A stretch of DNA of 64,000 nt from Rhizaria sp. SCN 62-66 (Eukaryota). Location of the stretch: assembly GCA_001724265.1 (NCBI GenBank), contig MEDY01000164.1, forward strand, positions 1 through 64,000, given 5' to 3'. Position numbers and translations under genes: made by a program. Shown in pieces: positions 1,235-43,820 of the stretch (position 1 is the stretch's first letter; each line of letters starts with the position of its first letter). Under the pieces are notes generated by a model. That model made no database searches, was not told where the DNA came from, and saw only the letters and a list, made by a program, of their open reading frames with translations.

Positions 1235-4200
1235 ATGTACCAGGCGCGTCTCCCACATGCGCAGCTGCGTCTCATCGCCAGCACTGCCACCTCAACAGCG
1301 TCCGCCCTCTCACTGACACACCGCGCCAAGAATGCCACAACCACTACAACTACGACCGCCAATTAGCATTCGACTGCAACTGCGACTACGCTGCGCTCAA
1401 CTCCCCGCCGTTGTCTCTCCGTCTCTGCTTTATTACCACCGCTGGCGCCGCCGCCGCCGCTGGCGTTTCCCCCGCCGCACCTGCCCGCGTCTCTGTCCGC
1501 GCTCGCTGGCCCCACAGTCCTGACGCCGTCCCGGTTCCCCCTCGCCGTCGCGCTGGTAGCGCCGCAGCAGCCCGTCAACACGGGCGCCGTCGCGCGGCTT
1601 ATGTCCGCCTTCGGCCATGCCGAGCTGTACATCTCGCCCACCGACAGCGGCTTCGATGCGCTCTTGCCGGGGGAGATGCTCGCGGACTTTGACGGGGATG
1701 GCACTAAGCTGTCTCTCACGCTCGCCCCGCTCCACTTGCACAGCGAGGCCAGGGGAGGCGACAACATGGCTGCTGCTCCCGACACTGCGACTTACGCTGC
1801 GGCTGCTGCTGCTGCGGCTGCAGGCGTGCCGTTGAAGCTGGGTCAGTGGATCGAGCGGGGCTGGGTGACTCTGCTGCCTCATAGTAACGAGGCGGGGGAC
1901 GTGTGTGGCGACAGTGTCGACAACGACACCGACTCTGTCTTATCCGTGACTCCTTCACAGTTGCGCCCACAGCCACAGTTGCAGTCGCACTCGCCCTTAG
2001 ACTCTGCGGACTCCCTGATGCCGCCGCTGCTGCGCTTTCTCGACTTGCCCGCGTCTGCGCCCCTGTCCCCGCTGCTGCTGACGCTAGCGCGGCCAGCGCT
2101 GTTGCCGCAGCTGCTGCCGCCATCGCTGCTCTGCCCTGCTTGGCTTGCGGGCGCAGACAGGGCCTATGTAAGCAGGTACTTAGACGGCCACAGCAGCGGC
2201 GGTGTCAGTGGTGGCAGCGACGGCTTTGTGGGGGCCGTTTACGCCAGCGAGGCCACCGGCAGCGAATGCCGCCGCGGGTTCCGCGACGTCAGCGTTCTAA
2301 GGGGTAAGGTACTTTCACCCGAGCTCGCGCTGTCGAGCCGTCCGAGCGACGAAGCCCTTAGATCGTCCGAGGCGGCTAAGCACCTTGACGTCCAAACACC
2401 TATCGTCCCCTCTACCCCTTACATCAACAACAACACCACCCGCAGCGGCGGCAACAACGACGGCCATAACAGCAACGTTTTTAACCCTTTTTTCCCGCTC
2501 GCGTCGTGCTTCCTGCGCGACCGCAACGGCGTCGCCCTGGCCCCCCACAGCCCCCACGCGACGGCCTGGTCGCCGCACTGCGAGCTGGTCCTGCGCCTGC
2601 CCCTCGCCGCGCTCGCGCCAGAGGCCGCAGCCGTCGCAGTCGCCGCCGCCGCAGCAGCATCGCAGCCGCCGCCGCAGTCTCAGGCACAGCAGTCGAAGGC
2701 GCAGTCTCTGGGCTTCGTCGAGTTCGTGTGGGCGGCGGCGCGCGTGGGCGTGGCTGAGTTCCAAGGCGCGCACTTGACGCACTGGTCCCCGCCCTACGTC
2801 ACCGCTGCGCTGCACGGGAGTAGCAGCAGCAATAACAGCGGTGGCGAAAAGGGAGGCGATGGTGCTTCCTCATCAGGTTCCTGCTCGGGTGAGGAAAAGT
2901 CGGGATGTATCGCTGATAATGCAGAGTTGCAGGATGTCAACAATGAAAATAGTAATAACACGACTAACTCTAATACTTCCAACGGTTTCTTTTCTGAAAC
3001 TAGCGCTTCTGCTGGCGCTGCAGTCGACTCCCGTCCATGCTTGTCGCTGCCGTTCGCTCGCTCGCACCCGTGTGTTGCCGTCACCGCGCTGTCCTACTCG
3101 ACCGCCACCACCAACGGCTCCCGCGTGCTGCACCGCGCGCGGCTGTTTTCGCACCTGGAGGAGCTGCTCCCGTCGTTCGACGTCGTGATCGGCACTTCGG
3201 CGATGCTGCGGCCGTCGCCGGAACACCTCCGGGCCCCGGTCAGGCTGCCCTGGGAGTTTGACTGGCCCGCCATCTTCAACGCCAATACGACCTTAAACAA
3301 CAACAACAACAACAACGACAACAACGCTGTTGCTAATGAGAGCGCGACATACAACGCGGCTAGAGTTGGAGACGAGGACACGGCGAAACTTGAGTTCCAA
3401 GAGCGCATCAACACCGTAGTCGCATCCGTCCTCGCTTCCCGCTCAAACGCGAGCTCTAGCTCTGACTCGGGCTCTGACTCGGGCTCTGGCTCTGGCTCTG
3501 GCGCTGAGTCTAGCCCGCAGTCTCCGACGAGCGTCCCCCATCCCTTGCCTTCCGCCAGCCGCGCCCCGTCGGTGCTGCTGGTGCTGGGGCGCGAGTCTCA
3601 CGGCTTAACTTCGCGCGAGCTGTCCCTCTGCGACGCGATCGTCACCATCCCGGGCCCTGCGGCGTCGGGGGGCACGAACCACTCGCTTAACCTGGCCCAG
3701 GCCGCCGGCTGCGTGCTGTATGAGGCCGCGCGCGCGGAGTCTCAGTGGCGCAGTCTAAGCGCGAACAACAACAACAACAACAACAAAAACAATAACAACA
3801 ATCGCAACAAAAACAGCGGTCACGATCGTCACAACACGAGTGCCGGCTTTGTTGTAAGCCAAAGCCCTCATGCTGCTGCTACAGACGCGTCGAAGAGTGA
3901 TGCGAGGACGGCGACGGGCTGGTTTGATCCCCACGCACCTGCTGATCTAAGTACCCCCTTAGACGGCGCACTGGACCAGCCTCCTGCCTGGGCCCTTACT
4001 CCCCAGGGCTTTGACGCAACTCTTAATAGCAGCAGCAGCAGCAGTGAGAGTACCTCTAAAAAGTCTTTTTTTAAGCCCAAGACCCCGTCTCATGTTGCTG
4101 CGACTGATCCAGCTGGTGTAGACCCTGCGAGCGCCGGATTTGGCTACCCGGGCTCTGCGCTGCACTGCCCTGCGCCCGCCGCGCTGGCGGTGCCGCCGCA

Positions 4201-4939
4201 GGCCCGCGCGGCGCTGTACCGCGTCGCCCGCTCGCTGTTCGCGTTGCTGGACCCGGCGCTGCTGGTCAAGGGCGACCGGCCGCTGCGGCCGCTGCGGGGC
4301 GCCGACCCCGCGGCCGCCGACGCCGAGGACCTGCGCAGCGACCGGCTCTGCGGCCGCGGGTTTGGCACGGGTGCCGGTGGTGGTGGCAGTGTTTTGGCGG
4401 CGTCAATGGCGGCGTCCTTAGCGGCAGCGGTGGGGCCGGGGGGCGCGCTGCCGCGGCGCCACCACTTAGACCTCCGCCGCAGCGGCCTAAGTACCCCCTT
4501 AGACCAGAGCACCGCCTCTGACGCGAGCAGTGAGAGCACTAACTCCGACGACGGCGACAGTGCGGCTGCGTCTGTGTCTGTGTCGACGTCGTCGTACGCC
4601 GCCCCGCTGCCCGCCAGCCGCGGCCTGCCTTCGAACGCGCAGGGCCGTTCCCACGCCGAGGACCTGGCCGTGGCGGTGCGCAAAGTGCTGCTGTCGGTGC
4701 GGCTGTCCCGGGGCGAGTTTGGCGCCACCAAGCGGCTGTTCGAGTGGCTGGCCAAGCACGTGCGGCTCATGCGAGTTGCGGTTGCCGAGGCCGAGGCCGA
4801 GGCCGCCGCGGCTAAGGCCGAGGTTGCGGTGGCAAAGGCAGAGGCGGCTGCTGCGAAGGCCGAGACGGCTGTGGCGAAGAAGGAAGCTGATGCTGCGAAG
4901 GCTGAGCTGGCGCGGTTGAGCTAGACTGCGAGCAAGTAA
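1235..4939 (+). CDS. TrmJ/LasT-like SPOUT (SpoU) RNA 2'-O-methyltransferase with a putative mitochondrial presequence and very large low-complexity insertions; contains two in-frame TAG codons (1364-1366, 4922-4924)
   Basis: SPOUT motif 1 LAVALVAPQQPVNTGAVARLMSAFGHAELYI starts at 1541, upstream of the ORF-track ATG at 1601. Later motifs: FDVVIGTSA, motif 2 LVLGRESHGLTSRELSLCDAIVTIP, motif 3 SLNLAQAAGCVLYEA. The nearest in-frame upstream ATG is 1235. If TAG is sense, the CDS is 1235-4939 (TAA), 1234 aa. The family call is firm; the boundaries depend on the TAG interpretation. Confidence 0.8.
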
Positions 4940-7900: not shown

Positions 7901-10900
7901 TCTTTGCCTTGTTGGCAGCAGCTGCTGCTGCTCCAGCAGTGCTAGCAGCAGAAGCAGCAGCAACAGCAGCAGCAGCCTTCGCCTCAGCCTGTGCAGCAGC
8001 CTTTGCATTGCTGCTGAAGCTTTGACCGTTATTGTTTGCAGCCAGAGCGTCAGTCCACTTCTGCCACACCACACGCATGGCCCTTTGATCGCGGATATTG
8101 ACAAACTTCCCGACCCTTACCCGCAGCTTACTCAGCGCCGCCCATGCCCTGAGTGCCGCGCGCGCGCGCCGTGCCTCTGACCGCGCGGCAAGCAGGCGTC
8201 CGCGCGCGCGCAGAGCAGCCGTCTGGCGCCAGGCCTGGAAGTTCAGCCGGGAGAGGGTTTGCCGGCGGTGCAGGAAGGCAACGGCAAGAGAGCGCGGGGA
8301 CGGCGGTTGATCGAACTCATCACCGTTGGCCGTGGAGTCGTCGCCGGTGCCGTACGCGTGGCGCTCACGGCCACCCGTAAAGTTCAGACTGTCGTCGTGG
8401 CTGTCGCTGCCCTGGGCGTTGGCGCTGTTTGGGTTAGGAGCGATGCCGGCGAGGTCATTGTAGAGCGTGGCTCTATGCGTCTCCGCGTGGGAGCCTGTGC
8501 GGGCCCCGACCGACACAACGTCGCCAACAGAGCCACTCTCGCCGTTCACAGGGCCGCCAGTGCTGCCATGAGCAGTGTTGGTGTTATTGTTAGCCAAAGC
8601 GGCGAGCGCTGTTTCAGCAAGTGTGGGCTCAAGCCAGAGAGCGCTGGGGACAACACCGAAAACACGCTGTTGCGGGGCACTTAGACTTGAGCTGCCACTA
8701 TTTGCGCCAGAACTGACAAGGCCGTGATAGTTGTTGTTGTTGTTGCCATTGGCATTCCAGTGCTCGATGAACGACACATCGCCAAGGACCGAAAAAAGAG
8801 GCCCGTCAGTCGGCCCCATAGCTGCACCATTATTAGCACTGCTAGCGGCAGCAGGGGGGTCGCCGCCGCTGTCCTTGTCCGCCAGCCAGCGTTCGCGCTC
8901 CCGCTGCTCGTACCACAGTGGCAGCGGCACGTGGATCAGCAAACCCTGGGAAATGGCGCGGTGAGCGGCCGCGGCGGCGGCGGAGGCCGCGGCGGGAGTC
9001 GCGGGCCGGCGCAATGCCAGCGTAAGCGCGACCGACGCGGCGTGGGCGCGCGCGATTGGGTCGATGTACACGTTCGTGCTACTAAGACTTTGACCATCCG
9101 CGTTCTCGTAGGCGTTGCTGGGGCCGCCAAGACCGATAGAGACAAGGGCGCTTACAAACGCACCGAACGACGTCTGAGGGTCCAGGGTAAGTGTCTGGGG
9201 GTTGCTGTAAGGGTATCCGTCCCACCGCAGCGCGAGCAAGTAAGGGTCCTTGTCCCAATCAAAGTTAGGCCGCACATACGTGCGACGACTCACGAAGCTG
9301 CTATGAACACCGCCGTTCGTGGTTGTGAGAGCGTTGTTGTTGCCGTTAGCGCTAGCGTTGCTGTTGTTGTTGTTGTTGTTGTTGTAGCGTGTGACACGCG
9401 CAGCGGTAGTGGCGGCCACCCAGTGCTTCAGCGCGGCGGCAGCGACACTGCGCGCTTGCGCCTGCAACGCGAGCCGCGTCGACAGCGCCTTCTGGCGCCG
9501 CAGGAGGGAGTAGGCGCGCAGGCGGGCGAAGAGGGACTGTGCGCGGGCGCGCTCACGGTCACCGCGGTGCGCGGCCGCCAAGGAGCTGTGGTGGAGATGT
9601 AAACAAAAAGAAGTAAAATTAAGATGAGAAATGACGCGAGCAAAGAATACAATGCACAAAAATCAATTTTAACGCATAAAAACTCGATTATGTTTGATTT
9701 GTTCAATACTTGTTATATTACGTACGCAAAATGCTTGCAGAGGGCTGCGTTGGCCTTCAGTGCAGCCACCGCCCTGCGCATGATCCAGTCCGCAGCCACC
9801 ATGGCAGCCGTCTCACGGGCGCCGCGGCGGGCGCGCGCGGCGTCGGCGGCGGCGGCCAGCGCGCGGAGCCCGCGGGCAAGGCCATTGCGGCGCGCTGCGG
9901 CCGCAGGCGCGGCGACGGCGAGGCTGCGCGGCAGAGCTATCCTTGAAAGAGTTCTACCTCCGCTGGAGCGGGCACTGTTCACAGTGCTTGTGGTGTTCGC
10001 GCCAGCAGTAGTGCTGTCGAAGCCGGCGTAGTGGAGCCAGCGTGCAAGCGCGCGCTTTGTCGCCACCATCTTAAACGCCTTGTCAGCGGTGGCGTTGACC
10101 TTGGCCTGAGCCTTGAGGCCGGCCCAAGAGCGCCAGGCGCCGAAGGAGGAGACTAGCTCGACCTTGCGGCGCAGGGCCAGGCGCCGGCTAGATATGATAT
10201 GTACGCACCAAGAATGACGTATTTGTAAATGATTTTAAAATTTTGAGTGTAAAACAATTTGTGTTAGTTAAAAACAATAGAAATTTTGTAAAATAAAAAA
10301 ATTCAAAGTATGTAGGCTCGTTTTAAGGAATCAACACGTTCGTAACAGGTTAAACCACAACTAGTTAGCAAGTTTTTATCTTTTCATAATTAAAGAACGT
10401 ACCTCGTGACGTCGCGCCACCTTCTGAGCGCCTCCGCAGCAAGCGCGCCGTTCCTGCGCGCGGCCACCTCTTCCCCGGCCTCCGCGAGCGTCTGCACTCG
10501 CGCGCGCCACAACTTCACCCCGCGAGCCAAAGCGACCGCGCGGCGGAAGCAGCGCGCCTTGGCCTCTGCCTCGCCCGCCGCGCGCGCCGCGACGAAGGCC
10601 GTGGCCCAGGCAGTCAGCGCTGCGGCGGCGAGGCGGCGCCGCTGCAGCGCGGCGACGGCGGCAGCGGGGGCGGCCAGCCGCGCCAAGGGGGCGGCGGCCG
10701 CAGCGGCCCAGTGATTCAGCGCGGCCCGGGGCAGCACGCGGGCGCGGGCGCGGGCCAGCGCAGTGCACAGACGGCGGGCGGCGGCGCGGCGGCGGCGGGC
10801 AGCCAGCCAGAGAGCAAGGTAGCGGCGCAAGAGAGAACGCGGGAGCACGTGGGAGGAAGTTAGGCCGCCGAGGAGAAAAGTGCTCTCATTAGTCGTCATG

Positions 10901-13900
10901 GTGCCGTTGACACTCGCGTTGTTGCTGTTGCGGGCGTTGTGGATAAAGGAGAACGAGGGCTCTTGCTGAGTATGCACCAAGTAAAACGACGTCTCGACAA
11001 CACCATTGGCATTTGGGCTCGTCACATCGGTTCCGCCATTCACGCTGCTGTTAACTCCGTCCTCGTCATCGTCGTCTTGCAAGAACAGAGCCGCAGCAGC
11101 CTCGGCAACAGAGCGGTTGCCAACATTCACCTTCGCAGGTCCCCTCCGATTGCCAGCGTTGTAAACAGCTGCAGCAGCAGTAGAGCTAGAGCTCGAGTTA
11201 GCGCGAGCACTGCTAGAGATGGTCTTTTGCTGGTTCATCTGGTCTTGCTTCTGCTGCACAAACTCCCTCAGCTTGCTCTCGAGCTCCCCTTCCTTCTCCT
11301 TGCTGCCCGCCGTTACCCGCCGCCACTGCGCCACCGCCGCCGCCACGGCGTCTTTGCGCTGCCGGACTGCGACGCGCCGCGCCAGCGCCGCGGCGGCAGC
11401 GGCAGCGCGCCACCCCCGCAGCGCCGCCGCCGCCGCCGCCGAGGCCGAGGCCGACTGCCGCCAGCGGCGCGTTGCCGCTGCGGTGGCGGCGGCGGCGGCG
11501 GCGGCGTTGCGCTGCCAGACGGCGAAGGCGGCGCGTAACCGCAGCCGCTTGGAGGCCGCGGGCAAAGCAACAGCAGAGCCAGCGCCCGCAGCGCCAGACT
11601 GCGAGTGCGGATGCGAGTGCTGCTGGGAGGGCGAGCGGTGAGCTGTGAGGGGACTGAGGCGCTGCTGACGAGAGGGGGTGCCGGGACCGAAAAAGTCCCC
11701 GCCGCTGCTGCTGCCACCACCAACGGCAAATGCATTATTCGTGCCGTCGCTGATGTTGTCGCCGCCGTTGTTGGCAGTGGAGGAGTAGGGGTAATAAAAG
11801 GCAGCCGCAGTAGTGGCGGACTGGTCGGCAGCGTCACGGGGTGGCTGGGCAGTGTAAGTAGAACTTAGAGCGCTGCCGTGTTGAGCCTGCAAGTAAGCCT
11901 GGCTGGCGTTCACGGCTGTCGTGTTGCCGTGGACGTTGTCAGCGCCGTTTGCGTTGTTGTTGATTGCGGAGAGATCAACAGATACATCACAGAGACCATT
12001 GTCACCAATAACGTTGACACAATTCGTGTTGATGTAATTGCTGGCTCTGACAGGAGGCCTAGAGCTCGGGCGAGCCAGTGAAATCGACGTATTGCCGTTC
12101 ACATTGTTGTTAAAAGCAGTAGCATTGTTTGTACTGACATTATTATTGTTGTTGCTGCTGTTGACAGCATAGTTCTTAGCCAGCGACAACATGGCAACAC
12201 TCAAATCGTTCACATTGTCACTGTTCGCGCTGCCGATGTTGACGCTACTCCCTGCTGTGGTATTGTTGCCGTCCAAGTGCCCCGGCCGAGGCAGCGTACG
12301 GCGAGACAGCGACAGCATATTGACGCCGTTTATGCCGGCGCCAACACCAGTGGCCACAGCGCTAGCAGAGCCATTGCCGGTTGCGTTAGTTGCCCCACGC
12401 GTCCCATGTGTACCGTGAGAACTCGTGTTCATCGTCGTCGCGGGGCCCGTGTTAGTGCCGACGCCGCCGATAACGACGCCGCCTAGAGTGACCGCCGTCG
12501 TCGTCGAGTTCATGTTGCCAGCACCGGCGTTAAGCTGTGCGTTGCCTGTGTTGGCAGTTGAGTGCAGCGCGCCGATCGCGCGGCCGTTGTTCTGAAGGTA
12601 AGCCACATGCTGCATGTGTAAGGGGGTACTTAGATTCACAAACCCGAACGCAGCAGTGCCCGCGCTAGTACTCGCGGCAGCGCTGTTGTTAGTTGCGGTA
12701 ACAGTGGCATTTGCAGCAAGAGGCGCAGCGACAGGGGTCGGTGTCGGAGCGAGGATGGGAGTCAGTCTAGGCGAAGGGATCTTCGTAGCGTTGAGACCAC
12801 CATTAACAGCAGTAGCCGTGGCAGCGGTACTATTGCGGCTATTTGCGGCATTCCCGGAGCTGTAAGTGGGAACGGGCGCGAGCATCGACCCCTTACCCAG
12901 CCCCGGCAGCGCGGCTAAGGGTGCGGCAGCTAAGGGGGTACTTACACTGAGGCTGGCATTTGCAGCGGCGACGCTAGTGTTGGCGTACGCTGCGGCCGAT
13001 GACGAGGGGGGACGCAGTGCAGTCTGAGACTTCTGGGGCGGCGCGCGGGCCTGCAGGGGCAGCGCCTGACCCTGACTCTGGTTCTGGTTTAGACTCTGAC
13101 CGTAAGCCTGCGCCTGCGCCTGCGCCTGCGCCTGGGCCTGGGCTTGGGCCAGGGCCGCAGTGTGGGCCTGAGCATGCGCGTGCGCCTGCGACTGGACAGC
13201 GTTCATATGGCTGTTATTAGAGGCGCTGAAGTCGTGGTTTTCATTGGTGTTGTTCTTAAGGAAATGCAAGAGGGCGGCAGCTTGAATCAGCTTGCCGACG
13301 GCAATCTCCTTCTGTTCCTCATCTAAGTGGGGGTTTCCCCTGACAATGCCCACGACTCGGCTTAAGTTTCCACGCGTGACCGTGGCTGCGAGCTTCAACA
13401 GCACCGACGGCTCCCACGCAACACCCTTAAATCCATCGTTCGCGTCTAAGGGGTACTTAGACCCGCCTGGCGTCGAATTATGACGGAACCACTGGTTGGT
13501 ATTGCTATTGTACTGCTGCGCCCCGCCTAAGGGTGACTGCTGCTGGTGTAAGTAGCTGTGGTGGCCGTCATCGCCCTCCGGAAGCAGGTCCCACTCTCCG
13601 GCGTACCGGTGCAAGTGGGCTGGCGCGGGAGAAAACCAGACACCCTTAGACTTGGTGTAAGTGCCTTTAGCGTCATTATGAACAGCACTGTTATTGTTGT
13701 TGTTATTATAACGACGGGAGCGGGCGGCTTCGAGACTCGCGAGGTAGCCAGCGGTCGCTGGCTGCGACTGGGCCGTGTGAGGGTCCTGGATCAGATCTAA
13801 GTACCTCGCCAGCTGCTCGGCACTTACATTCGCGCCGAGAGCGCCATTGGCACCGCTAAACACACTGCCGTCGCCGCTGCTGCCCTTGGCGCTGCGGCCG

Positions 13901-14364
13901 CGCGATTGCGACCGCGACCGAGACCGTGAGCGTGAGCGGCTGGTATCGCCCTTGCTGTTAGCGTCGCCGGCGGGGCGGCCGTTGATGGTGAAGTAGCGCG
14001 AACGTTCGCGCACTTTGCCCGGGGATAGCGAAGACGCCAACACCGGCGGGGGCCGGCCGGAGAAGCTGCTGTTGTTGACGCGCATTACGACGCTCACGTC
14101 GTGGCTCTTCTCAAGAGCGGCACCGCTCGTATTGACGCCGTTGTTGGCGCTGTGCACGTTCTCATCGTTGTCAACGCCGTTATTCTTGTTGTTGTTGTTG
14201 TTGTTGTTGTCGTTGTGAGTGGAGACAATGCCTGATCCGTACGGGGCAGCGACGGCTCCGTTTTCGTCGCTATCAAGACTGGTATTGTCGTGATTGTGGC
14301 TGTAGATCGCACTGGTGTGCAGCTGAGCGCGGGACACGCTGAGGTCTGTAAGGGGGTACTTACA
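3946..14364. repeat. Dispersed 17-18 bp quasi-palindrome (T)STAAG-TACCC(C)-CTTAS(A), six copies
   Basis: + strand copies at 3946-3963 and 4486-4503; - strand copies at 12617-12634, 12929-12946, 13445-13461 and 14347-14364. Many half-sites elsewhere. Confidence 0.8.
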
Positions 14365-14468
14365 TTTGGCGACGCTGCCAGGACTGCGGCTGCGATTATA
14401 GCTCTTGTTGTTATTGTTAGAGCCGTTACCAGTCATACTGTTGGAGTGATTTCCGTGAATGTCAGCTT

Positions 14469-14502
<34 letters not shown>

Positions 14503-16563
14503 GTTGTAGTGGCTGTTGTCAAAGCGGCGGTGTCCATGGGCGGTACCGTTGCTGTTGTCATTGCGGTGGCGCTCGCGACCGCGCCGACTGCTGCTGACAC
14601 TCGCATTGCCACTGTTGTTGTTGTTGTTGCCGTCGTGATTGTTGTCGTTGTCACTGCTACTGTAGCTATCGTTGCTGTCACTTAAGTAATACTGCTCGTT
14701 GAAGTGACCGCGAGCAGAGTGACCGTGAGCAGAGTGACCGTGAGCGTCGTCGTCATCCGTCACAGTAGCCCGCGGCAGCTTACTCTGACTAGGCCTGTGA
14801 CTTATCAGACTGTGACCAAGGCCTGCCTCAGCCGCCGCCGCCGCCGCCGCCGCAGTAGCAGCAGCAGCGGCGCTAGCATTGTAACGCGACTGCGGGCGTG
14901 AATGTGACTGTTCGTGCGAGTTGTTGCTGTGACGACTGTGCATGTTGGGAGTCGACAGCAAGTTGTGACCGTGAGCAGCATGTGTCCCGGCAAGGTGGCC
15001 GTGAGGAGCAGGACTACGCTGCACCAGTAGCCCAATATCGGCCAAAACCCCCGCCACTGACCGCGACAATTCATTTTTGTTGCCATCGTGATCACTAGCC
15101 CCTTCCAGCTCCCTGTCTAAGCGACGAGGCGTCTTATTGGGAACATCAGTCATATTATTGCTATTTGTGTTATTGGCAGTCGCAGTCACGTTGAGCAAGG
15201 CACCAGCAGCATCCTCCTCGTCGTCGCTGTTGTTAGTGTAGTGACCGTGAGCAGCAGAGTGACTGTGACCGTGGCCGTGGCCAGGACTGACCATGTAAGT
15301 ACTGCCTTCTAAGGGGGTTGCAAGCCCGTTATGCCCGAAAACACCGCTCTGTTGCTGCGAATGCATCTGCGACTGTTGTTGCAGCCGCAACTGTTGTTGT
15401 TGCTGCAACAACTGCTGTTGCTGCAGCTGCAGTTGCAACTGCATCTGTTGCTGCTGCTGTTGTTGCTGTTGCGCCAACAGCAGCGCACGCGTATGCTCTT
15501 GCTCCTGTTGCTGCAGCAAACTTACATTAGCCGCGTCCAGATCACGTTCACGCCTGCGGGCAGCCGTCACCGCCGCCGCCGCCATCGCCGCCGCCGCAGC
15601 TGCCTTGGCCTGTGACTTCGCCTCAGCAGCGGCGGCGGCGGTGGCAGCGGCGCCATTGTGGACCCCTGATAGCCTTTTGCTGTTGAGGTTGCGAGAGGAG
15701 GGGCCGTTCGTCGCACTCGATTTCGCACTTACTGCCTTGGTCGCAGCAGCTGACGCAGCAGCAGCAGTGGCGGCGGCGGCGGCAGCGGCGGCCTCGGCAG
15801 CCTCAGCGGCTAATAGCGCAGAGTGGGAGCGGCTTAGCTTCTCGCTCTCTGCGGCGCGGCGCGCGCTGAGAAAGCCGAGGCTTGTCATAGCAGCGGCAGT
15901 GACACTGTTATTGCTCGCGCTTGTGTTTAGATTGGTGTTACCATTGCTGTCAAATTGATTTAAAAATGACGAAGTTGACGGCGATGCAAACGGACGGCTA
16001 GTCAGCGGCGGCGGCGGCGGCGGCAGAGCGGGGCCAGCATAGTAGCCGTTGCCATTGCCAAACTGTTGCTGCTGCAGCTGCTGTTGCTGTTGATAGTGGC
16101 CTCCAAGACTCAGCGCAGTCGCACCCAGCGCGTTGGCGTTGTTGTACATGAGCATGTTGTTGCTGGCACTGGTGTTCGCGGGCCCGCTGCTGTTCACAGA
16201 GCCAACCGACATGCTGAGGCTCGTGTTGTGGCCGGCAGGCGCAAGGCCGGGGTAAAGCGCGTTCAGCAGCGAGCCGTGTCGCAGAGCCTCGGACGCAATC
16301 TCCGAGCGGCTTGAATTCAAGTACGCGTCGACCGCGCGCCCCACACTGGAGCCAGCCGCAGCCGCTGAAGCAGCCGTGGAGGCAGAGGCGGCAGGGGCGG
16401 CAGAGGCTGAGGGGCGGCGGGTGCCGGAGACGGAGGGCCGGCGCACTGCGGCGCTGCCGGATCGTGTGGGTTTGTGAGGCGGGGCAACCGGCTTGCTAGT
16501 GACCGTCGTGAATTTGGGCACGGGGGGCTTTTCGCGGCCCAGGAGGTAGCCGTGGGAGGCCAT
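5436..16563 (-). CDS. Giant (~3590 aa) low-complexity protein with Sfi1-like (centrin-binding) Trp repeats
   Basis: Exons 16563-10403, 10187-9726 and 9585-5436. Introns 10402-10188 and 9725-9586 are both GTACGT...AG, phase 2. Total 10773 nt, in frame, ending TAA. About 15 helical repeats of type L/AxxxF/LxxW[RK], e.g. LRAAFAVWQR, LAAEALRRWRD, LVSSFGAWRS, SRLNFQAWRQ, MRVVWQKWT. Confidence 0.7.
14468..14507 (-). repeat. (AAC)n trinucleotide microsatellite encoding poly-Asn; representative of many exonic AAC, GCN and CAR tracts
   Basis: (GTT)n run on the + strand; similar tracts at ~3297-3325, 3764-3800, 9362-9385 and 14187-14215, and poly-Gln at ~15370-15470. Confidence 0.85.
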
Positions 16564-17022: not shown

Positions 17023-20000
17023 TCAAGCGTTACCGCTGTTCTTGCCCGTCGACGTCGCCGCTGCCGTCGCAGCAGTAGCACCAGCGGCGGCGGCGCCCTC
17101 GCCGGCCTTCTTGACCCTGCGCCAGAGCGTCATGGGGACAAAGCGGTTGCGTTTCTGCCACAACCCGTGCACGTAAAACGCCCGATGGAGCGACCCGGAG
17201 CGGTCGATGTCGATGAGGGGCGCCGAGGTCACGGCCCACCACTCGCCGCTCTTGTCCAGCCCGGTCTGCACGGCGCTGGCGTGCGAGCCCGAGCCGGCCG
17301 CCGCGGGGGACGCCGCGCGGCTCGCCCAGGCGTCCTTAGGGTGGGTACGGTCGGGCCCAAGGTCCGTGTCGACGACGAAGTCGCACTCGGAGAGCGGGAT
17401 GAAGCGGTCCTCCTCGCGGCGGTTCAGCTCGTTCATGTGCTTCGCGGCGGGCGCGGTCGCGCCACGGACCGAGGAAGCCGTGATGTTGGAGCCGAAGTGC
17501 TGCGGGAGCAGGCCGCCGAAGTCGCAGTCGATGAAATATAAGTCCAGCCGGGGGCGAACGAGACGGGAGTAGCCAGCGGCGATCTTCGAATACCCATCGG
17601 CAGCAGCAGCAGAATCCCCCGCCTTGGTACTATGGGGCTGGTTCGTGAAGATGCGACCGACAGCGCTGCCGAGAGCAAACACATTGTCCTCACCAAAATC
17701 ACCACCATTAGCACTGGAGCTAGAGCTAGAGCGAGAGCTGGAGCTAGCCTTGTTATTGCTGTTACTCTCATAGTGGGTGGTAATGATGGTGGGCAGGCCG
17801 TCGCGGCTGTCGCGCTCTGACTGGGCCTTGGCGACTTCGGCCTCAGTCACTGGGGCCCACGCGGCCTCGGGCAGGTAGAAGTACGAAGGGAAACGGTACC
17901 ACTCTTTGCCGACGCAGACGCGGGCAACAGAGGACTGCTCTGCAAGGAGCTTCGCGTCCGCAAGCGAGAGGCCGGCGACGGAGACGAGGGGCTCGGGGGT
18001 CTTGGCCTCCGCCATAGTGACGAGGCGGGGCATCGTCTCGCGCGCGTAGCCCAGCGGGGGGCGGCCGGTCAGGTTGAAGTAGTTATTCGCCGCAGTGATG
18101 GCCCCCATCAGGGTCGTGTCAGTCTTCAGAGCGCCGGCGACGGCCAGCGTCGGGTCACTACTGTCAACAACGCCGGAGCTCGCGACGCCGAGGCGAGCAC
18201 CGCTAGCGCTGGCAGCATGGGAAGCCTTGTCACCGTGACTGTTGTTGTTGCGATCGTCATTGCCGCTGCTGTTGCTGCTGTTGGCGCTGGAGTTGGCGTT
18301 CTGGTTGCTGTCGGTAGCGGCAGTGCTCTGCACGGTGTGGAAGGCGGCAAACGCGACGAGGCCCGGTGTCGTGGCAGAGGACACCTGTGCATACAGGGTG
18401 AAGAACGTCACGGCTGGCGCGGAAAAGTTGTACAGCACAGCGAAGGCGCGCGAGACTGAGAGCGTGCAGTGCAGGATGAACAGAGTAACCGCGACGATCC
18501 AACTCGCGAGACGCCAGGGCGCGCGGCGGCGACGGCGAAGCGTCGCAAGCGAGCCGCGAACAGACGCAATCGGGCCGCACACAGCGTTAGCCGCGGAGGC
18601 GCTCGCAGAGCTGGCGTTTGTGGAGGCGGTGGCAGAGCTGGAGCTGGAGCTGGTAGGACTGGCGGCAGTGCCAGCGCTAAAGTTGTTGCTACCGCTGCCG
18701 TTGTTGTTATTGTTGTTGCTGAGCCCCGCGTTGTTGGCGCTAGCGGTGTCGCGGGCGCGGAAGACGATGATCTTGAAGTAGAGCATAATCCGCTCCCACG
18801 CGGGCCGCGCCACAAAGGCCGCGCGCGCGGCGCTGAGACTTGCACTCACACCACTGCTGTTGCCGCCGCCGCTGTTGTGCGACAGAGACGATGAGCGAGA
18901 CCGGCCGTTGGCATTGGAAGAAACAGAACTTGCATTCGCGGCACTGTCGCTAGCGCTGTTATTCGCGCTCTTAGGGTCACAGTCGCTGCCACTAGCAGTC
19001 TTGGCGCTACTGTTGTTGCTGCTGTTGTTGTCGGAGCCAGAGGTGGGCTCGTTCAACGCGGACTGGACGAGGGCCGTGTCCAACACACTGGGGTTGAAGC
19101 CGACGGCGACGGAGGCCGCGTCAGCCGCAACCTGGACACACGCCAGCAGGATCTCGAGGCCAAACGCAGCAGCCAAGCACAGCAGAGGGTAGATAACGTA
19201 GAGAAAGCGCTCTTCTTTGTGAGGCTGGGGGAACATCACGAGTACCCACAGGTACATTGGCGTGAGCAGCCACGCCTGCGCAATCAATGAACACGACCAA
19301 TCGGCTAAGTAGGACGCCGCGCGCGCCGAGAAGGTACTTAGACCGGAGCGCGGGGTACTTACACCAGGAGCGGGGAAGCCCAGCAGCGCGCGGGTGTAAG
19401 TGGGCCAGCCCCTGAGAGCGCCGAAGACGACCATGCCGGCGCCTGAGATGAGCGCCAACGCGAAATGCGCGACTGCGAGACCAAACGCAACACCGAAGTT
19501 GAGAAAAAGATTGACGAAGTAGTAGGTCCATGGCTCCGTGCCATAAAGCTGCTGACCAGCGCCGTCGTCATTGTCGTCGCCAGCGAAATTGCTGTTGTAC
19601 ATCGCAATGTTCCAGACCGCGATTACCGGCGCGCGGTTGTAGTAGTGCCAATCGACAAGCACTGACAAACCCAGGATGCCGGCGGCGGACGCGGCGGCGG
19701 CGGCGGCGAGGTATAGCAGAGACCACTGACGCGCGCGCGCAGGCTCGAAGGAGACATACGGCGACGTGAGGGCCAGGGGGGCCGCGGCCGAGGCCGAAAG
19801 GCCGATAGGGTTGACGAAGAAGCGCAAAAGCCAGCCCAGGGAGAGCGGGGGCAGCGTCAAAGCAGCGCGAACAGCCAGTACACTGCTTGAATTGACACTC
19901 GCGGCGGCCGCAGCGGCGTTGCTTGCGATGATTTCGGCCTGGGAAATGCTGCTGCGACGGCTGTTAGCGACTGAGCTGGCGGCGGAGCTGTTGGCTGAGC

Positions 20001-21432
20001 TGTTGGCTGAGCTGCTATTGCTGCTGTTGCCGGAGTAAGGCCCGTGCCGCTGCCGCAGCGTGCTCATGTTGAGACTGCTCTCGTAGCTCAACACACTTGC
20101 GCTCCCATTGACAGAGCCCACAGTAACAACGCTGTTGTTGTCGCCAGCGCTGGCATTGGGGCTCGCGAAAGCGCCGGACTTTGCGTGGCTGGTTCTCGGC
20201 GTGCTGAGCCCGCTGTTGTTCGCGCTATTGCCCGCGCTCGCATTTGCACTGCCATTCGCACTCGGATTCGCGCTACCGTCGGCGCTGGCGATGCCGTTAG
20301 CACCAGAGCTGCTCTGAGAGCCTGTGGCGGCGTCTGTGACAGCGGGGGCCGGGGGCAAGACGCCAGCGGCAATCGCGGCGGCAGCGCCCTGAGGCAGCGA
20401 GGCCCAGTAAGGCAGTGGCGCGTCAGACCAGTCCCAGGGACGGTAGGTTTTGAGGGCCTGCCAACCCATGGGCAGCACCATGAAGACGATGAATGGCCAG
20501 CCGAGCAGCCCGGCGAGCGCGACCCAGAAGATCATGAGGGCGAAGTGGCGACGCACGTACGCGGGGGCCGCGCGCGGGTCGCTGGCGTTGACCCAGGCCG
20601 CCCAGGCCAGCGTGAGCGTGTTCATAGTGAAGGACTGGGGAAGAATGGCGTGCCCGGCGTGGTCGAAACCGCTCGAGAAGAGCAGGAATACGAACAGGAG
20701 ATTAGATACGCGGCGGCCGAAGCGGCGCGCGATGGCTGCAATAAAGATAGCTTGGGCCAGAGCGCAGTACATGGCGCTGATGACCTTAATCACGAAGAGA
20801 ACGCCGATCTTGCCGAACTCCTGCTCGACACCGAGGTACCTGGGATTGAAGAGAAGGAAACCCAACAATATAGATACATGAGACATTTAGATTTTTAAGT
20901 GAAAGCAGGAAGGACGGTAAAACATACACATATGCGCACTACAACTCAATGATGTCGCAACATAAAATAATTACGACCGATTTAGGCAGAGAGGATGTGG
21001 AAACATGACGTACTTCGCGATGTATCCGATGATGGCATAGGGCCAGAGAAAGAGATAGGAGCGCAGAGAGTATTCGCTGCTGTACTCCCACGTCTGGAGT
21101 CCGCGACCGTACATAAGCAGGTGCAGCGGCTCGACGTAGTTAAACGTCTCATCGCAGTCCATGACCGGGGAGAAGAATGCGGAGAGAGCACGGAAGCAGA
21201 ATAGCGCGATCAAGTGCACCACCAGAGGCCAGGCGGGCTCCAGGGGGGCAGGGGAGGCCGTCAAACGCGACGCACAGCTGCCAAGCATACTACTGCCGGA
21301 GCCAGAGGGGCCGGAGCCAGCGCCGCCGTTGCCGGTGCCGTTGGCGGCGTTGGAGACGTTGCCGTTGATGGCGGTGTCGGGCGCCGAGGGCCGGCGGGAC
21401 CCACCCGCTCCAGAGAGGCGCCGGGCCGACAT
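17023..21432 (-). CDS. ALG9: Dol-P-Man alpha-1,2-mannosyltransferase ALG9 (GT22), ~1411 aa with long insertions
   Basis: Exons 21432-21014 and 20839-17023, intron GTACGT...CCCAG, TGA stop. Motifs DCDETFNYxEPLH, GLQTWEYS, LRSY, QPHKEERFLYVIYP, VCVGKEWYRFPS, GLLPxxF and MNxLNxxExDR, plus multiple TM segments. Confidence 0.93.
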
Positions 21433-22223
21433 TAGACTGGGGGCACAGCGACGGCTGCAACGGCGGACGCGCTAAGGCACAGATGCAGCGTGGGGGGTTG
21501 TCGCACGCGCGCACACAGACTCGTTTGCAGTCACTCGTTTGCAGGCACAGCTGCGAGATACGAGCTGACGAGCAAGCGGGGGCACAGGATGGAGGCGAGG
21601 GCTCTTGAGAACAGGAACCTACGCAACCCGCGCACAAGGGGTGTCTGCAGGTGTTCGATTAGAGTCAGAGAAGAAGAGGAAGTAAGGGAGAGTAAGCGTT
21701 TGAGTTGAAGGGAAAGGAAGGGGCAACTTACGGTCAAGCGAGGTGATAGCAAAGGCAGGATATGACGACCAGTACTGAGAGTTAAAAACGCCTAATAACA
21801 AATCTACACAGAAAATAATTCAACATATACCTGTACATCGTATTCACCGCAAACGACAGATGCTGCACTGCAATACAGACTCCATTCGAAAGGCCTAATA
21901 AGTCACATGCTTGTCGTCGAGGTTATCGCGTCGGTCGACGGTTGCATCCCATACAAACTGGAGTTCAGTTCTAAAAGCAGGCATATCTCGCCGTAATCAG
22001 CCATGGTCATGATAAAAATGCGACAAGGAGATCAAAATAAGCATTATGTTTTATTTTTGTGTGTTTTGATATAATATTCAACTAGTATAATGCGCCTATC
22101 GCGCGTTAGGTGTTTTGTTACTGACAGGCAACCGTTCCCTTCGCGCATCACTCATGATCGCGGCTTCGTTTTCACTCTAAAACAGAGGAGTTAGCTCGCA
22201 ATGGCAACGTCGCGCCGCCATCT

Positions 22224-23150
22224 TTACGCGTCGCGCTTAGCCCACATCACCTTGCTGGCGATCTCGGCGTCCTTCTGCAACATTTTCGCGAACAGTGGCA
22301 GCAGCCCCGCCGCGCCCAGCCCCGCGGCCGCCTGACTGTGCTTCTCCCCGTTGCCCTATTTGCGCGCCGCGGCGTCGCACTGCGCCTGCGCCGCGCCAAC
22401 GACCTTGGACAGCAGCTTCGTCAGGTCGTTCTGCGCACGCGTCACGACCGCGGGCGCGGCTGCGGCGGCGTCGGCGTCAGAGTCGGCGGCTGCATTAGCC
22501 GAAGAGCTAGTGGCAGCGGCAGTGCCGCGCATGCGGTTCCACTCAGCGCACTCCTTGGCGGCGACGTCCTTGTCGTTGCCGCCCGTGTAGGCGACGCTGG
22601 GCACCGTCACGAGTGGGTACATCGGGTGCAGCGAGGTGGGGGGGATGGTGTTGCTCTGGCGGACGTGGGTGGTGAAGTTGGGCGCTGGCTTGCTGGCCTC
22701 GGGGAGCGCCTTGAGCGCCACAGCAATAAGCGCGTGGGCCGCGGTAATAACCTGCTGGGCCTGCGCGAACTGCACCTCCTGGTCCTGGCCCAGGGTGCGG
22801 AACCAGTGCGCGCGGTCCGCCTCAGGCACGTCCTTGAGCCAGGGCGCCTGGGCCAGCAGGGACGACTGCGAGACGCCGCCGTTGTGACTGGAACCGGGCT
22901 TGCTAGAGTGCGCGGTGGAGCCTTCAATAATGAGCGCAACAGTGGGGCTGCCTGCGGTGATGCCCGCGGCGGCGAGCGTGGCGCTGTCGTCGTTGACAGC
23001 CTTGTTCTTGACGAGAAGACGCTGCTTGGAGTAGGGCGCAAGCTCGGCGGTGGCGATGCGGGCACGCAGCTCGCCAATCGTGGCCGAGGCGGGCAGAGTG
23101 AAGGTGCGGGAGTCGCCACCATTGACCTTGACGGAAACCTCGAGGGACAT
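22224..23150 (-). CDS. Ubiquitin-like-domain protein, probable compact BAG6/Scythe-like protein; in-frame TAG at 22358-22356
   Basis: N-terminal Ubl (VSVKVNGGDSRTFTLPASATIGELRARIA...QRLLVKNKAVNDDSATLAAAGIT). The ORF track ends at TAG 22356, but the frame continues for 43 codons (39/43 ending G/C) to TAA at 22226-22224. PWLKDVP..W...QD and the C-terminal helix resemble BAG6 C-terminal elements. Confidence 0.7.
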
Positions 23151-23718
23151 TAGCCGCGGAGTCTAGTCCGGGGGCCAGGGAGCAGGGGATCGGGGGAGGA
23201 AGGGAGCGAACGGGTGAGATTCGGCAGGCGAGACGCAGCAAGGGATATCTGAAGATATTCGCATTTTAAGAACATATTATATTCAAGATATCATACCAAA
23301 CCATATAAATTCTATATACGAAGTTACATGAAATTTGACGCAGATATGACCGCGCTAGATATGATTTAAGGCAGTCTTCAGATTGAGAGCGTCAGCAAAG
23401 AGAAGACGCTCGGCGACTTTTTAGGAACCAGTCTCTCCGTCCGTCCGACCTACGCCCCCGACGATGAAACGGCTCGATCGAGTGGCCAACTTTGAGAAGC
23501 CGCAGAGACTTCATATATCCGTTGTTGTGCATTTAGACATTAGAATCAAACCTATGCGGCAATAGTGTATTGTTTTTTCTATTACTGTGTCTTCAAGTGC
23601 TCTCACTGTCCCGCTACATATTATCCCGACAATCGTCTCTTCTGTCTGTGTTCCACCACTCCACTCCACCCGGTTTCTTCCTGTCATTCCTCAACGCAAC
23701 CAGAACAGTCCTCCACTG

Positions 23719-39059: not shown

Positions 39060-41164
39060 TCACACTTTGCGCGGGTTTTTGGGGCAGTACGGCGGCTGCA
39101 GCAGATGCGCGCGCCAGGCCTCCTCGCTGTCCTGTTCCAGCGGCGCCAGACAGAGCGGACAGACGCACGCCTGAGGGTTCGCGGGCGTCAGCTGTGCTAC
39201 TAGCGCGCGGCCACGGTCGCTCGCAGCCTCTGCACACTCCTCGGAGACGTGCTCACGCATGGCCGCGATCTCGATGATCTGGTCGCAGAGGTGGCACTGG
39301 GCGAGCGACGGGCAGGACTGCCAGTAGTGGAGGTCCATCGAGTCCTCGCTGAGGCCAGAGACAAGACCGCAAAACTGGCACGAGGACGCTGTGTCGTGGA
39401 AGCAGAGTGAGGGCGGCGTTAGAGAATGGCAAGGTTAGGCGAAGATAAAACAGTAAGATTGATCGAGAATGAGTGAGTGGGTAAATATGGGACACATTCA
39501 GGGCGTACAGCAAGATAATCAAACAAAAAGAAAAGAGTTATATCGAGGTGATAAAATTCGGCGTTACTACAAAATCAAATTAGTCCAAAGATATGAACAG
39601 ATTTACGAAATATGAGTTTGTTCAGTTATACGTACACTCGGCAGTGTCAATGTCAGTCTCAGGCCCCACAACAGCAGCAGCAGCAAGAGCAGCAGCAGCA
39701 GCAGGCGCAGGCACAGGCTCGGGGGCGGGGGCAGACACAGCATCCTTCTTCTTCCCCGCTACGGCTTCTTTCTCTTTCCCCTTTGCCTGTGCAGGACCAG
39801 TTCCAGCAGCAGCAGCAGCGGCGGCAGCGGCGAGCTTCTTAGCTCCAGGTGCGCTTGCCGCCGCGCCAGCCTTCGCACTGCCTCGCTTTGCTGCCGCAGC
39901 GTCGCCGCTCTTCGCTGGCGAGGCCGCACTCGAAGGCCCAGCAGAGCCAGATCCAGCGCCAGAGGCAGTCGATTTGCCCTTCGGCCCAGCCGCCGCCGCG
40001 GCACTAGCAGCGGCCGCAGCACCGGCCTTAGCCTTGGATCCGGCCGCAGCGGCAGCAGGAGCAGGAGCAGCGGCGGCCGCGGCAACTGCAGGATTAGTGT
40101 TTGCACTCGGGGCCGGCACAGCGGGCGCCCCCGGCAAGTCCCCGTCCTCGAACACTGACTGGGGCAGGTTCTTGCCGATTTGCCGCACCAGCTTTGCACC
40201 GCAGCGGTCGATTGCGAGCCGCGCCAGCTTGCCCATCGCCTCCCGGACGGCGCCGTCGCGGTGACCAATGCTGGCCGAAACCAGTGCGATCACGGGGGAG
40301 ACCGAAGGCGCATTGGGCAGCGGTGCGGGGCCGGCGGTGGCCTCGGCAAAAGACGTGAGGGCGCAGATGTCGGCAAGCACGGCGGCGCGCGGCCGCAGCA
40401 CGAGGGGCTTGTCGGCGTCCTTCTTGGGGATGGCGCGGAGTAGCGGCTGGGTGATGAGGCCCGTGTCGAGCCCGCTGTCGCGGACGAGCTCCAGCAGCAC
40501 GTCGTGCGCCGCTGCATGCACGCGCGCGTTGGACGACGCCAGCAGAGGGATCACGTGCGGAGCCAGCAGAGCGTCCAGGTGCATTGCGCAGTCGGAGACC
40601 GGCAGGTGCGCGGGCGAGGACGAGAAAAAGTACCGACGCGCGAGCGCGGATACGGCCTGATATAGAAAAATATATCGAGAAACAAAGATCAAAGCAAAGA
40701 GAAGTCAGTAATAGAAATCTCGGCTTTCAAAACACTTTTTTGTGTTGAAATAATCAATAGGAATTAAAATAAAAACACGAGAAAATACAACCAAGTAAAC
40801 AAAACAGTGCTAGTTTTAGCGCGTGAAAGCATATGCGGCGCGAGATATACGGCTATATTTAGAAAGTGACGTACCCCTAGCGCGGCGAGTGCGATCACAG
40901 GCGCACTGTCCAGGAGCCTCTTGATCACGCGCACCACAGCGAATACGACTTCGCCGTTGCTGGGGTTCGTGCCGGGGGCGGGGACGCCAACGGGCGTGCC
41001 GTTTGCGAGTGCGTCTGCGATGTCCTTCGCTGCTTGCTGGCGGAAGGGAAGGCCCTTGGAGTAGGAGCAGCGGACGAGCCTGTCGCCGAGAATAGGCAGC
41101 ACCGGCTCAGCATCCTTGGCGTTCGCGAGCGAGAGCTGCTCAGGATCATCGCTGTTATTGCTAC

Positions 41165-41205
<41 letters not shown>

Positions 41206-42861
41206 GAACTAAAGCTGGGTCCGGAATTAGCCGGGAAGGCGTCATCGCGAGCAGTGTCGTACTTGCCAACCGCACTCCCGCCGAGCGGCCTGTTGTCCGC
41301 CGCGTCATAACCGCCGCCGACACTGGCGTAGGCGCTGACACCAGCAGCAGCGGACTGGGGCAGCAGAGCTACTGCCGAGGGCGAGGAACCCAGACCGCCG
41401 CCGACGCTGCCTGTGATGTTGCCGGCGTCGCCGGCTGCCCCCCAGTCTCCGTGACCGTGGGCGCTCGCAGACGTGGCGGAGTCCGCGCCGTAGGCATCGT
41501 AGCCGCCGCCGTAGCCGCTGTTGTCGCCGACAGAGGCAGAGCCAGCACCAGCAGCAGCGGCCGCAGCGGCGGCGGCACGCGTAGCTGGGAACGGGGCGTG
41601 CGCAGCGATAGCACTAGCGTTGGAGTATGACTGGTTGCTGCTGTTGGGATTATAGCCGCCGCCGCCGCCGCCGCCGTTGCCCGCAGCCACAGTCGACGAC
41701 GCGGGGGCTCTGCCGGCGCCAACGGGGGGCATCGCGCGGCCCTCGGAGACGGCAGCGACACTGTCCCTGAGAGCCTCGGCCTCAACCTTGCAGCGTTTGG
41801 CGCCGTCAAAGTCGTCGGCTTCGATGCAGCGGCCCTTGTCCTTCTCCAGCTGTGCAATTCGGGGTGCCACAGAGCGGAGGTAGTCGATCGCGAGCTTGGC
41901 CCGCTTGGCCTCGTCGAAGTCTTCCAGTTGCACCGCCACATTCTTCCGCTGGATTAGAGCAGCCAGTTGACGTGAAGTGCGCTCGTCAAGCCCGCCGGCG
42001 GCCGCGGAGGCTGCGGCCGCGGCGACCGGGTCCTGTGCGCCCGCGACTGCGGAGACAGCAGCATCCGCGCCCAGCGGCAGACGCGAGGGGAGAGTGAAGG
42101 TGCTGAGGTCTCCGACCACATTGACGGCAACAAAAGCGACCTGCTTGAACAGATTGTGCTCATTAATGTGGCAGTCTTGGATGACAAGCTTGACGTACAT
42201 GGCGCGCGCGTTGATGTACACGGTCTTAAGCTCGCGCGCCTGGTAGTTGGTGCGCTCGTTTGAGTACAGCGACAGGTGGCCGAGGTGGGTCATGCGGGCG
42301 CTTGTGTGGGAGGGGGGCAGTCCAGGGCTAGGAACACCAACGAAGACGTCGACTGTGGTGGCGATGAGCGACTCGTGGGAGAGAATCTGAAGCTTGCGGA
42401 CGTCGACGACACCGCCTAAGTCGAGGACAAGGACTTGCGGGAAAGAGCAGAATCTACGAGTGCAAAACGAATAGAAGCAACAAACAAGTAATACAGATCA
42501 AGCAAATAAAGAGAAAAACAAGGATGTGTGAGTTGATAGCAAAGCAAGAGACAGGCGCGAGCTATGGTGAGCATAAGTGACGCAGTGATTCGAGACTACG
42601 AGACTAGAGTCGCTGAGTCTAAGGCTTGACGACGTACTTCTTGGAGTACCAGCCCTTGGTTTGCGAGGTGTGCGTCTCAAGCTCTGTGTAGGAGTGCTCC
42701 GGGTCAAACGAGGAGCACGACACAACCTTGAAGTTGATCTTAGAGAGCTGCTGCTGCTGGGGCGCGGCGCCAGCAGCGCCGGCCGAGGCGGCGGCGGCGG
42801 CGGCGGGGGCATATGACATCGGACCGGGGGGTGCTGAGTAGGGTCCGACGCGCTCAGACAT
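39060..42861 (-). CDS. CEP104: Centrosomal/ciliary-tip protein CEP104 (FAP256), ~1050 aa
   Basis: Exons 42861-42638, 42453-40875, 40656-39636 and 39388-39060 (TGA); all donors GTACGT; 3153 nt in frame. N-terminal jelly-roll (GWYSKKFCSFPQVLVL...KLQILSHE...SNERTNYQARELKTVYI...NLFKQV), UVR-like coils (KNVAVQLEDFDEAKRAK), TOG/HEAT region and C-terminal zinc fingers (CQFCG...DLHYWQSCPSL...CPLC...WRAHL...CPKNPR). Confidence 0.92.
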
Positions 42862-43820
42862 GGGAGCGACTGCAAGAGTGCGGGGGGAAGCGGCACAAGT
42901 GCGAGGGCAATGGAGAGCGTGCGCCGAGTTGAGGCGGTCCGGCGGCGGGTGGCAGGCTGACAACGCGAGTGCGTTCGGTCGGTGAGGGGGAGAGTTAGGG
43001 AATGCAAGGGCAAGTCAGGAAGGGGGAAGATCGCGTCCTTATAGGGTGAGAATTGATGAGAAGATATAATAATTAAGAGAAATTATGATAATCAAAATGT
43101 GGGATCAATAGCTATGGATTCACCGATGTAGACCCGCTGGGAGGGTTGATGTTCGAGGCAGAGAAGTGGGCTTGAGAGAGGGAGGAAAAGAGTCGCACTA
43201 GCTCGGCGAGTCCGCTGTTTGAAATGAATTCTAAGGAGGGAAACCACCCCATCAAGGTCCAAGTAGCTGTAAAATTCAAAGCCAATATTCCATGACGAAT
43301 CTTCCTGTGCGCCACCGTTTCTCCTCTGCCCAACACGACCAATTCGACCAACCCAGTTCAAATTGACCGTTGAGCCGACAGGGCCGAAAAAAACAAAGGT
43401 CGACAGCGGTGAAATTTTCGGTTACCGAGTCGTCCATTTCGAAAAAGCTAATTGAGTTCGATCAAGTTAGGTCTGATACGAGACACACGCGCATCCAAGT
43501 GGCATCGCAATTATCAGTATGATTATCCCATCGAGTGATTTGTTTTGTTTTGCATTTGGTTTCGCTATTTGAGTCCGCTTTCTGGCTCTGTTAATGCCTT
43601 TTAGTTCCACCGGTTACTCAACCCCCTAGAGCTCGATCTAGCGCTTGCTGACAAGGTCTTTGCGGCCTCTCCCTTCACTCCTAAAGGCATGTATGCTCAC
43701 TTTTCGAATTATTTCATGCTTTTCTTTACTCTATATTTTGTTCTCATAGACTCCAGCTTCGGTCCTACCTCGCGTTTGTGACCGGCCGGAATCCACCCCA
43801 CCCCCAAGGCCTTCCCGCTC
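42862..43820. promoter_or_regulatory. Probable bidirectional promoter region between CEP104 (-) and the dynein beta heavy chain (+)
   Basis: Head-to-head starts 959 bp apart, lower GC, no credible ORF. Inferred from gene geometry only. Confidence 0.5.

Follow-up and report, generated by a model that had tools for sequence, protein, structure and literature searches.

A TAG inside the conserved frame of a Ubl-domain gene in a probably rhizarian wastewater eukaryote is probably a nonsense allele

Genetic codes in which UAG alone has been given to an amino acid are the first systems with which an in-frame TAG has to be compared. According to the excerpt of PMC5304391 on which we draw here, UAG is the only reassigned codon in Iotanema spirale, where it encodes glutamine, whereas in the rhizarian exLh it encodes leucine and was counted 384 times in frame in 71 genes; the same excerpt describes the known lineages with a sense UAG as carrying several in-frame UAGs per gene. 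The locus described below resembles these codes in that a TAG stands at a glutamine position, that TAA serves as stop and that the lineage is probably rhizarian. It differs from what that excerpt describes in its numbers, as many UAGs per gene are opposed here by one in about 16,700 codons, which in addition is polymorphic with CAG.

The second comparison is with premature termination polymorphism in natural populations, for which a change from CAG to TAG is the commonest route to a nonsense codon. Here, the likeness consists of a single C>T at a CAG, of the CAG that is kept in conspecifics and in an orthologue, and of a downstream frame that is intact and codon-biased. The difference is that the present case concerns an uncultured metagenomic protist and is known from sequence alone. 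By its domain order, the encoded protein also recalls BAG6/BAT3 and other co-chaperone adaptors that combine a ubiquitin-like (Ubl) domain with a helical tail, as it has an N-terminal Ubl and a C-terminus that is predicted to be helical. Unlike in BAG6/BAT3, no match to a BAG or BAG6 family or chain was obtained outside the Ubl, and by fold the C-terminus matches generic hairpins of two helices, with Z scores of at most 8.1. We think that the TAG arose from CAG as a nonsense allele, in one population of a probably rhizarian eukaryote that uses the standard code, and we assign a probability of roughly three in four to this reading. A nonsense allele is an ordinary kind of variant.

The Ubl gene and the frame beyond its TAG

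The gene lies on the minus strand of the 64-kb window, which is the whole stretch of DNA that was analysed. In the translation of 23153-22200, the frame runs from 23150 to 22359, meets a TAG at 22358-22356 (CTA at 22356-22358 on the plus strand), continues for 43 codons and ends with a TAA at 22226-22224. It reads MSLEV...AAARK, then the TAG, then GNGEKHSQAAAGLGAAGLLPLFAKMLQKDAEIASKVMWAKRDA, then the TAA. The features of the locus are the following:

22359..23150, minus strand: Ubl gene before the TAG, 264 codons with the ATG at 23150-23148, identical to protein P0001
22932..23135, minus strand: ubiquitin-like domain, residues 6-73, from Pfam PF00240 and AF2
22356..22358, minus strand: in-frame TAG, codon 265, which is CAG in the contigs X4 and X5 of other studies and in the orthologue L002, and TAG in the metagenome contig L001
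22227..22355, minus strand: conserved 43-codon extension, residues 266-308, from GC3, codon score, identity to P0002 and dN/dS
22224..22226, minus strand: TAA, the presumed ancestral stop of the Ubl gene, with AT-rich sequence beyond it; the orthologue L002 also ends with TAA
22359..22478, minus strand: first helix, residues 225-264, of a predicted hairpin at the C-terminus, from structure models
22239..22331, minus strand: second helix, residues 274-304, of this predicted hairpin, which would be lost with a stop at the TAG, from structure models
22356..22403, minus strand: candidate 48-nt intron GTCGTT...AAATAG, rejected by comparison of GC, length and splice sites

Third positions in the extension are G or C in 39 of the 43 codons, the exceptions being AGT, CCA, AAA and GCT. 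The exact translation and the codon list thereby agree with the original prediction, which had reported this reading and this count and had also held the extension to be unlike the AT-richer 3' flanks of other genes, a difference that exceeds chance and that GC, GC3 and codon score all bear out. The 150 nt past the TAG have a GC of 0.67 and a GC3 of 0.86, compared to 0.26-0.58 and 0.24-0.68, respectively, past 15 other listed ORF ends. A codon log-likelihood score that sets the true frame against the five other frames, and that was built from nine long ORFs, gives the extension +22.9 bits over its 43 codons. This corresponds to 0.53 per codon, the true-frame mean being 0.54. All 43-codon stretches past 10 other ORF ends score negatively (-6.1 to -48.2), and several of these ends are exon-intron boundaries and not gene ends, which still makes them non-coding comparators. 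The six frames hold 167 TAG triplets that are free of TAA and TGA for 40 codons on either side, and none of the others comes near the TAG of the Ubl gene in the coding scores of its two flanks (25.3 and 20.0).

When 5.8 billion proteins were searched, just two matched: P0001, which is the 264-aa product of the window itself and is called on 7 contigs, and the 312-aa protein P0002. Residues 1 to 306 of P0002 align at 60% identity, and the alignment passes through the TAG position, where P0002 has a glutamine, and through the extension. In its DNA (L002), the column of the TAG holds a CAG, and the gene ends with a TAA a few codons past that of the window. P0002 shares 30 of the 43 extension residues in spite of many synonymous third-base differences, and the Nei-Gojobori dN/dS against P0002/L002 is 0.21, compared to 0.37 for the 260 aligned upstream codons. 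The dN/dS, together with residues kept identical amid synonymous differences, leads us to the view that the extension has been translated through most of the history of the lineage. The 43 codons past the TAG are genuine coding sequence under purifying selection. Such selection had been suggested beforehand as a check of the extension, and orthologues that end at the TAG position, with an unconserved extension, had been named as evidence against it; the orthologue at hand instead covers the extension and has CAG.

A scan of 1.84 billion representative proteins gave 107 hits at E ≤0.001. Except for the 264-aa product of the window, all of these hits rest on the Ubl domain, among them ubiquitin repeats and a ubiquilin-like protein, and the four such hits that were aligned (P0104, P0050, P0106 and P0103) have no credible homology in the C-terminal region. 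Across these two very large protein sets (5.8 billion proteins and 1.84 billion representatives), just one homologue of the non-Ubl part was found.

The Ubl domain itself is assigned by Pfam PF00240 (E 6.9e-06, 26.2 bits against a cut-off of 25.4). In a full-length AF2 model from the two-sequence alignment it is the sole region with a pLDDT of ≥70, its beta-grasp secondary structure reaching 72-85, and the helix 225-264 stays below 50. A separate model of the last 93 residues has a two-helix hairpin with a mean pLDDT of 67, in which helix H5-49 is at about 60-82. The TAG/Gln codon falls exactly at the predicted turn (Q/stop-G-N) between the two helices, and according to this model the product of the TAG allele would lack helix 2 of the hairpin.

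The original prediction had likened this C-terminus to the 'mock BAG' (BAGS) domain of BAG6, which a stop at the TAG would truncate. The truncation stands in part, as a conserved helix is predicted to be lost, whereas the BAGS identity lacks sequence support. Neither BAG nor BAG6 families were found in Pfam, with E values up to 1 allowed for the whole protein and up to 10 for the C-terminal 217 aa. A profile search of the PDB found ubiquitins and Ubl domains only, which include the BAG6 Ubl chains 4dwf and 4eew at E about 3e-4, and for the C-terminal 217 aa, with E up to 10 allowed, the sole PDB matches were two proteasome chains (E 0.7), in searches where the HMMER filters drop most matches above an E of about 0.1. 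Structure prediction, which had likewise been proposed as a check, led to the helical hairpin and to generic helical folds. With the C-terminal model, Foldseek had no match at E ≤0.001 (best E 8.4), and VIA-align placed generic helical proteins at the top with a Z of 8.1, which lies within the stated noise for helical models; no BAG or BAG6 entry is among the best 50 VIA-align matches of this hairpin of moderate confidence. A protein atlas had no usable feature match for residues 85-312 of P0002, and its structural rows had a TM of at most 0.34.

The TAG site in other samples

Contigs from four runs of three other studies were compared with the window over 20500-23400, and two of the four cover the TAG site. 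Both of these, X5 (study P4, depth 7.8) and X4 (study P3, depth 6.7), have an A>G at plus-strand position 22358, which makes the TAG a CAG. Two further differences, Q273K and a synonymous one at codon 119, are common to X4 and X5, whose contigs represent a distinct haplotype of the same species, about 0.3% from the window. In 2.9 kb, the X4 contigs differ from the window by 15 single-base differences and 2 indels, and one difference, 20644 A>G, is common to three runs; these differences indicate that several closely related haplotypes exist in different wastewater-type samples. The TAG is kept in L001, a separate metagenome contig of 2175 nt that is 100% identical to the window. As L001 agrees with the window and the 264-aa product is called on 7 contigs, a random sequencing error is unlikely.

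The public runs in which the stretch occurs are metagenomes from bioreactors, wastewater and activated sludge, so that the window is a metagenomic contig. Every sampled word of it was found in runs dated 2015, 2016 and 2017. These runs may be the source of the window or duplicates of it, and the TAG allele may have persisted across them. Within the Ubl gene, the poly(A) RNA run X8 covers 22455-22651 only, and the run X7 does not reach the TAG. Two joints in X8, 21343>22453 and 22478>22954, were treated as foreign or chimeric, as their short sides have 22-23 nt and their ends are not those of introns.

Use of UAG in the window and the lineage of its host

The window encodes an axonemal-type dynein heavy chain, CEP104, an Alg9-like mannosyltransferase and LRR/IQ proteins, and this gene content together with spliceosomal introns identifies it as eukaryotic. 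The C-terminal 609 residues of the dynein are 59% identical to a Plasmodiophora protein, 59% to one from a chlorarachniophyte transcriptome, 58% to Bigelowiella and 57% to Lotharella, compared to 55% or less for alveolates and stramenopiles. By these sequence matches, the dynein gives a hint of a rhizarian lineage and not a placement. The dynein heavy chain gene occupies 43821-58280 on the plus strand, with roughly 4,700 codons and two AT-rich introns at 44211-44369 and 48930-49085.

The introns are AT-rich, and the four that could be delimited have 135-173 nt, a GC of 0.29-0.36 and a 3' end rich in pyrimidines. There is very little variation among the 5' splice sites (12 sites), GTACGT being used most and GTATGT or GTACGC less often; examples of donors lie at 42636, 59877, 48930, 44211 and at about 10420, 26790, 34856 and 36987. 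Several long ORFs that seemingly end in TAA or TGA run into such donors and are exons of larger genes, as in the case of 10390-16563, which leads to 9722-10180. The Alg9-like mannosyltransferase gene (PF03901) is found at 17023-21432 on the minus strand and has two exons, for whose intron the donors GTAATT and GTCGTA are both in phase; in its second ORF of 1287 codons, the best PF03901 stretch covers residues 383-580, with about 700 residues beyond it. A CEP104-like gene at 39622-42894, also on the minus strand, has at least three exons, and a TAG at 42621 lies past its first exon, in the intron that begins with GTACGT at 42636.

The use of TAG was counted after a six-frame re-segmentation in which only TAA and TGA were treated as stops and a segment had to reach 25 bits in codon score to be kept. 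The sense-strand coding segments sum to about 16,700 codons and contain three in-frame TAGs, at 44295, 59707 and 22358. The TAG at 44295 is inside the dynein intron GTATGT...CACAG (44211-44369), and that at 59707 belongs to the TTATAG 3' end of an intron that opens with GTACGT. Over about 16,700 sense codons, the TAG of the Ubl gene is thus the only one that is truly in frame. Other flagged TAGs are antisense shadows of the dynein gene or segment edges, and the one at 42621 stands just past a GTACGT donor. The 12,128 codons of the training set, in which TAG is zero by construction, include 417 CAG and 62 CAA, and a glutamine TAG would be about 1 in 650 glutamine codons. The original prediction regarded the Ubl gene as a second, independent gene in support of a sense UAG, a role that can hardly be upheld with one in-frame TAG in about 16,700 codons and with CAG elsewhere. 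The gene that it counted as the first may be the dynein gene with its intronic TAG at 44295.

The ten ORF ends with coding potential to within 3 codons of the stop comprise 6 TAA, 3 TGA and 1 TAG. The single TAG, at 4922, ends a SpoU-methylase-like gene at 1601-4924 on the plus strand, the only other TAG-terminated ORF of the window, and is followed by ACT GCG AGC AAG TAA (4922-4939), so that a TAA stands four codons downstream. As the C-terminus of this protein is an Ala/Glu/Lys-rich coil of low complexity, it is unsuited to an orthologue test of TAG termination. Clear TAG terminators are scarce, and the window alone does not prove that TAG terminates. A tRNA scan found no tRNA genes of any kind in the 64-kb window, and there were no Rfam matches in it either. 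Among the literature matches listed, as far as their excerpts go, none describes a code change in wastewater Cercozoa.

A probable nonsense allele and its alternatives

In the reading that we prefer, the Ubl gene would encode a lineage-restricted protein of 308 residues, with an N-terminal Ubl, a conserved middle and two long C-terminal helices, and would end at the TAA. A single C>T transition in the window's population would then have changed the glutamine codon 265 from CAG to TAG. As the organism most likely uses the standard code, this TAG would act as a stop at codon 265, and the last helix would be lost. That the 43 downstream codons still look fully coding would be explained by a recent date of the C>T change, as we propose. 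The helix may be dispensable in the bioreactor, or a CAG allele may be present in the same diploid cell. A third route by which the allele may be tolerated is basal near-cognate read-through, which would restore some full-length protein; glutamine is one of the residues that are inserted at UAG in yeast and mammals. Two observations are what is expected of a nonsense allele. A sense codon, CAG, is one base away in the conspecific contigs X4 and X5 and in the orthologue L002, and purifying selection has acted past the stop (dN/dS 0.21, 30 of 43 residues identical, a codon score close to the true-frame mean).

The same TAG could be a regulated, leaky stop from which a short and a long isoform arise by programmed read-through, as the extension is conserved and in frame and three adenines directly precede the TAG. 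Upstream adenines favour read-through in yeast. However, the stop is not conserved, since the orthologue and two other samples have CAG, the base after the TAG is a G, and the 131 nt around and after it fold no better than shuffled sequences (z = -0.41, with 69 of 200 shuffles as good), so that we regard regulated read-through as very unlikely indeed. Only slightly more credence goes to an artefact of assembly or sequencing, or to a minority variant raised to the consensus, with CAG as the real sequence. This would fit the CAG of other samples, and L001 and the window may share the same or related read sets. Against it stand the two separate contigs, L001 and the window, which agree over 2175 nt with zero mismatch, the exact 264-aa product called on 7 contigs, and the linked differences at codons 273 and 119, which mark the CAG contigs as a different haplotype and not as a corrected version. 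Practically negligible, finally, is a splice that removes the TAG, which the original prediction had named as a possible refutation. The in-frame stretch GTCGTT...AAATAG at 22403-22356 does start with GT, end with AG and have, with its 48 nt, a length that is a multiple of three. But its GC of 0.75, its length and its want of a pyrimidine tract are unlike the four delimited introns (135-173 nt, GC 0.29-0.36), and its GTCGTT donor is unlike the GTACGT, GTATGT and GTACGC of the twelve 5' splice sites. It also consists of 16 codons in frame that are partly conserved as protein in L002, and the contigs of X4 and X5, two runs that are not confirmed as RNA, are colinear here and have no joint. The rejection of this putative intron rests on intron anatomy.

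There is also the view that UAG is a very rare or ambiguous glutamine codon, TAG and CAG being a synonymous polymorphism and the full protein of 308 residues being made. This is improbable, yet it has several points on its side. The TAG aligns with Gln/CAG in P0002/L002 and in the conspecific contigs X4 and X5, and a UAG read as glutamine would make just this exchange, between CAG and TAG, synonymous. The Ubl gene ends with TAA, which dominates the clear termini (6 of 10), and the only other TAG-ended ORF of the window has a TAA four codons on. Moreover, the best named matches of the dynein are from Rhizaria, a group with one known UAG reassignment, to leucine, as far as the excerpt of PMC5304391 describes it. 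On the other side, the roughly 16,700 sense codons hold a single true in-frame TAG as opposed to several hundred CAG and CAA, the dynein gene, which exceeds 4,500 codons, is free of TAG outside its introns, the tRNA scan of the window was empty, and known UAG-sense lineages have several UAGs per gene according to the same excerpt. A reassigned UAG is not supported, and given that a code change has a low prior, that other TAGs are almost absent and that the TAG aligns with glutamine, we put it at about 6-7% by rough reasoning, not by computation. We see likewise little probability, and marginally less than for a rare glutamine UAG as such, in an uncultured, probably rhizarian wastewater protist in which the capture of UAG for glutamine is at an early or ambiguous stage, with TAA and TGA ending nearly all genes. 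If UAG were such a rare glutamine codon, the TAG and CAG alleles of the Ubl gene would segregate as synonymous ones and would offer a rare view of a reassignment in progress.

The reading as a nonsense allele in one population implies a caution for screens for code changes, as a strain-level nonsense allele mimics codon reassignment, with an in-frame stop that is followed by codon-biased and conserved sequence. Three checks separate the two: how often the codon occurs over many genes, what stands at the site in other samples, and what stands there in orthologues. For the protein, the nonsense allele would mean that a lineage-restricted Ubl protein with a conserved C-terminal hairpin is naturally truncated in one population, which, should the organism ever be brought into culture, would provide a natural knock-out of its last helix.
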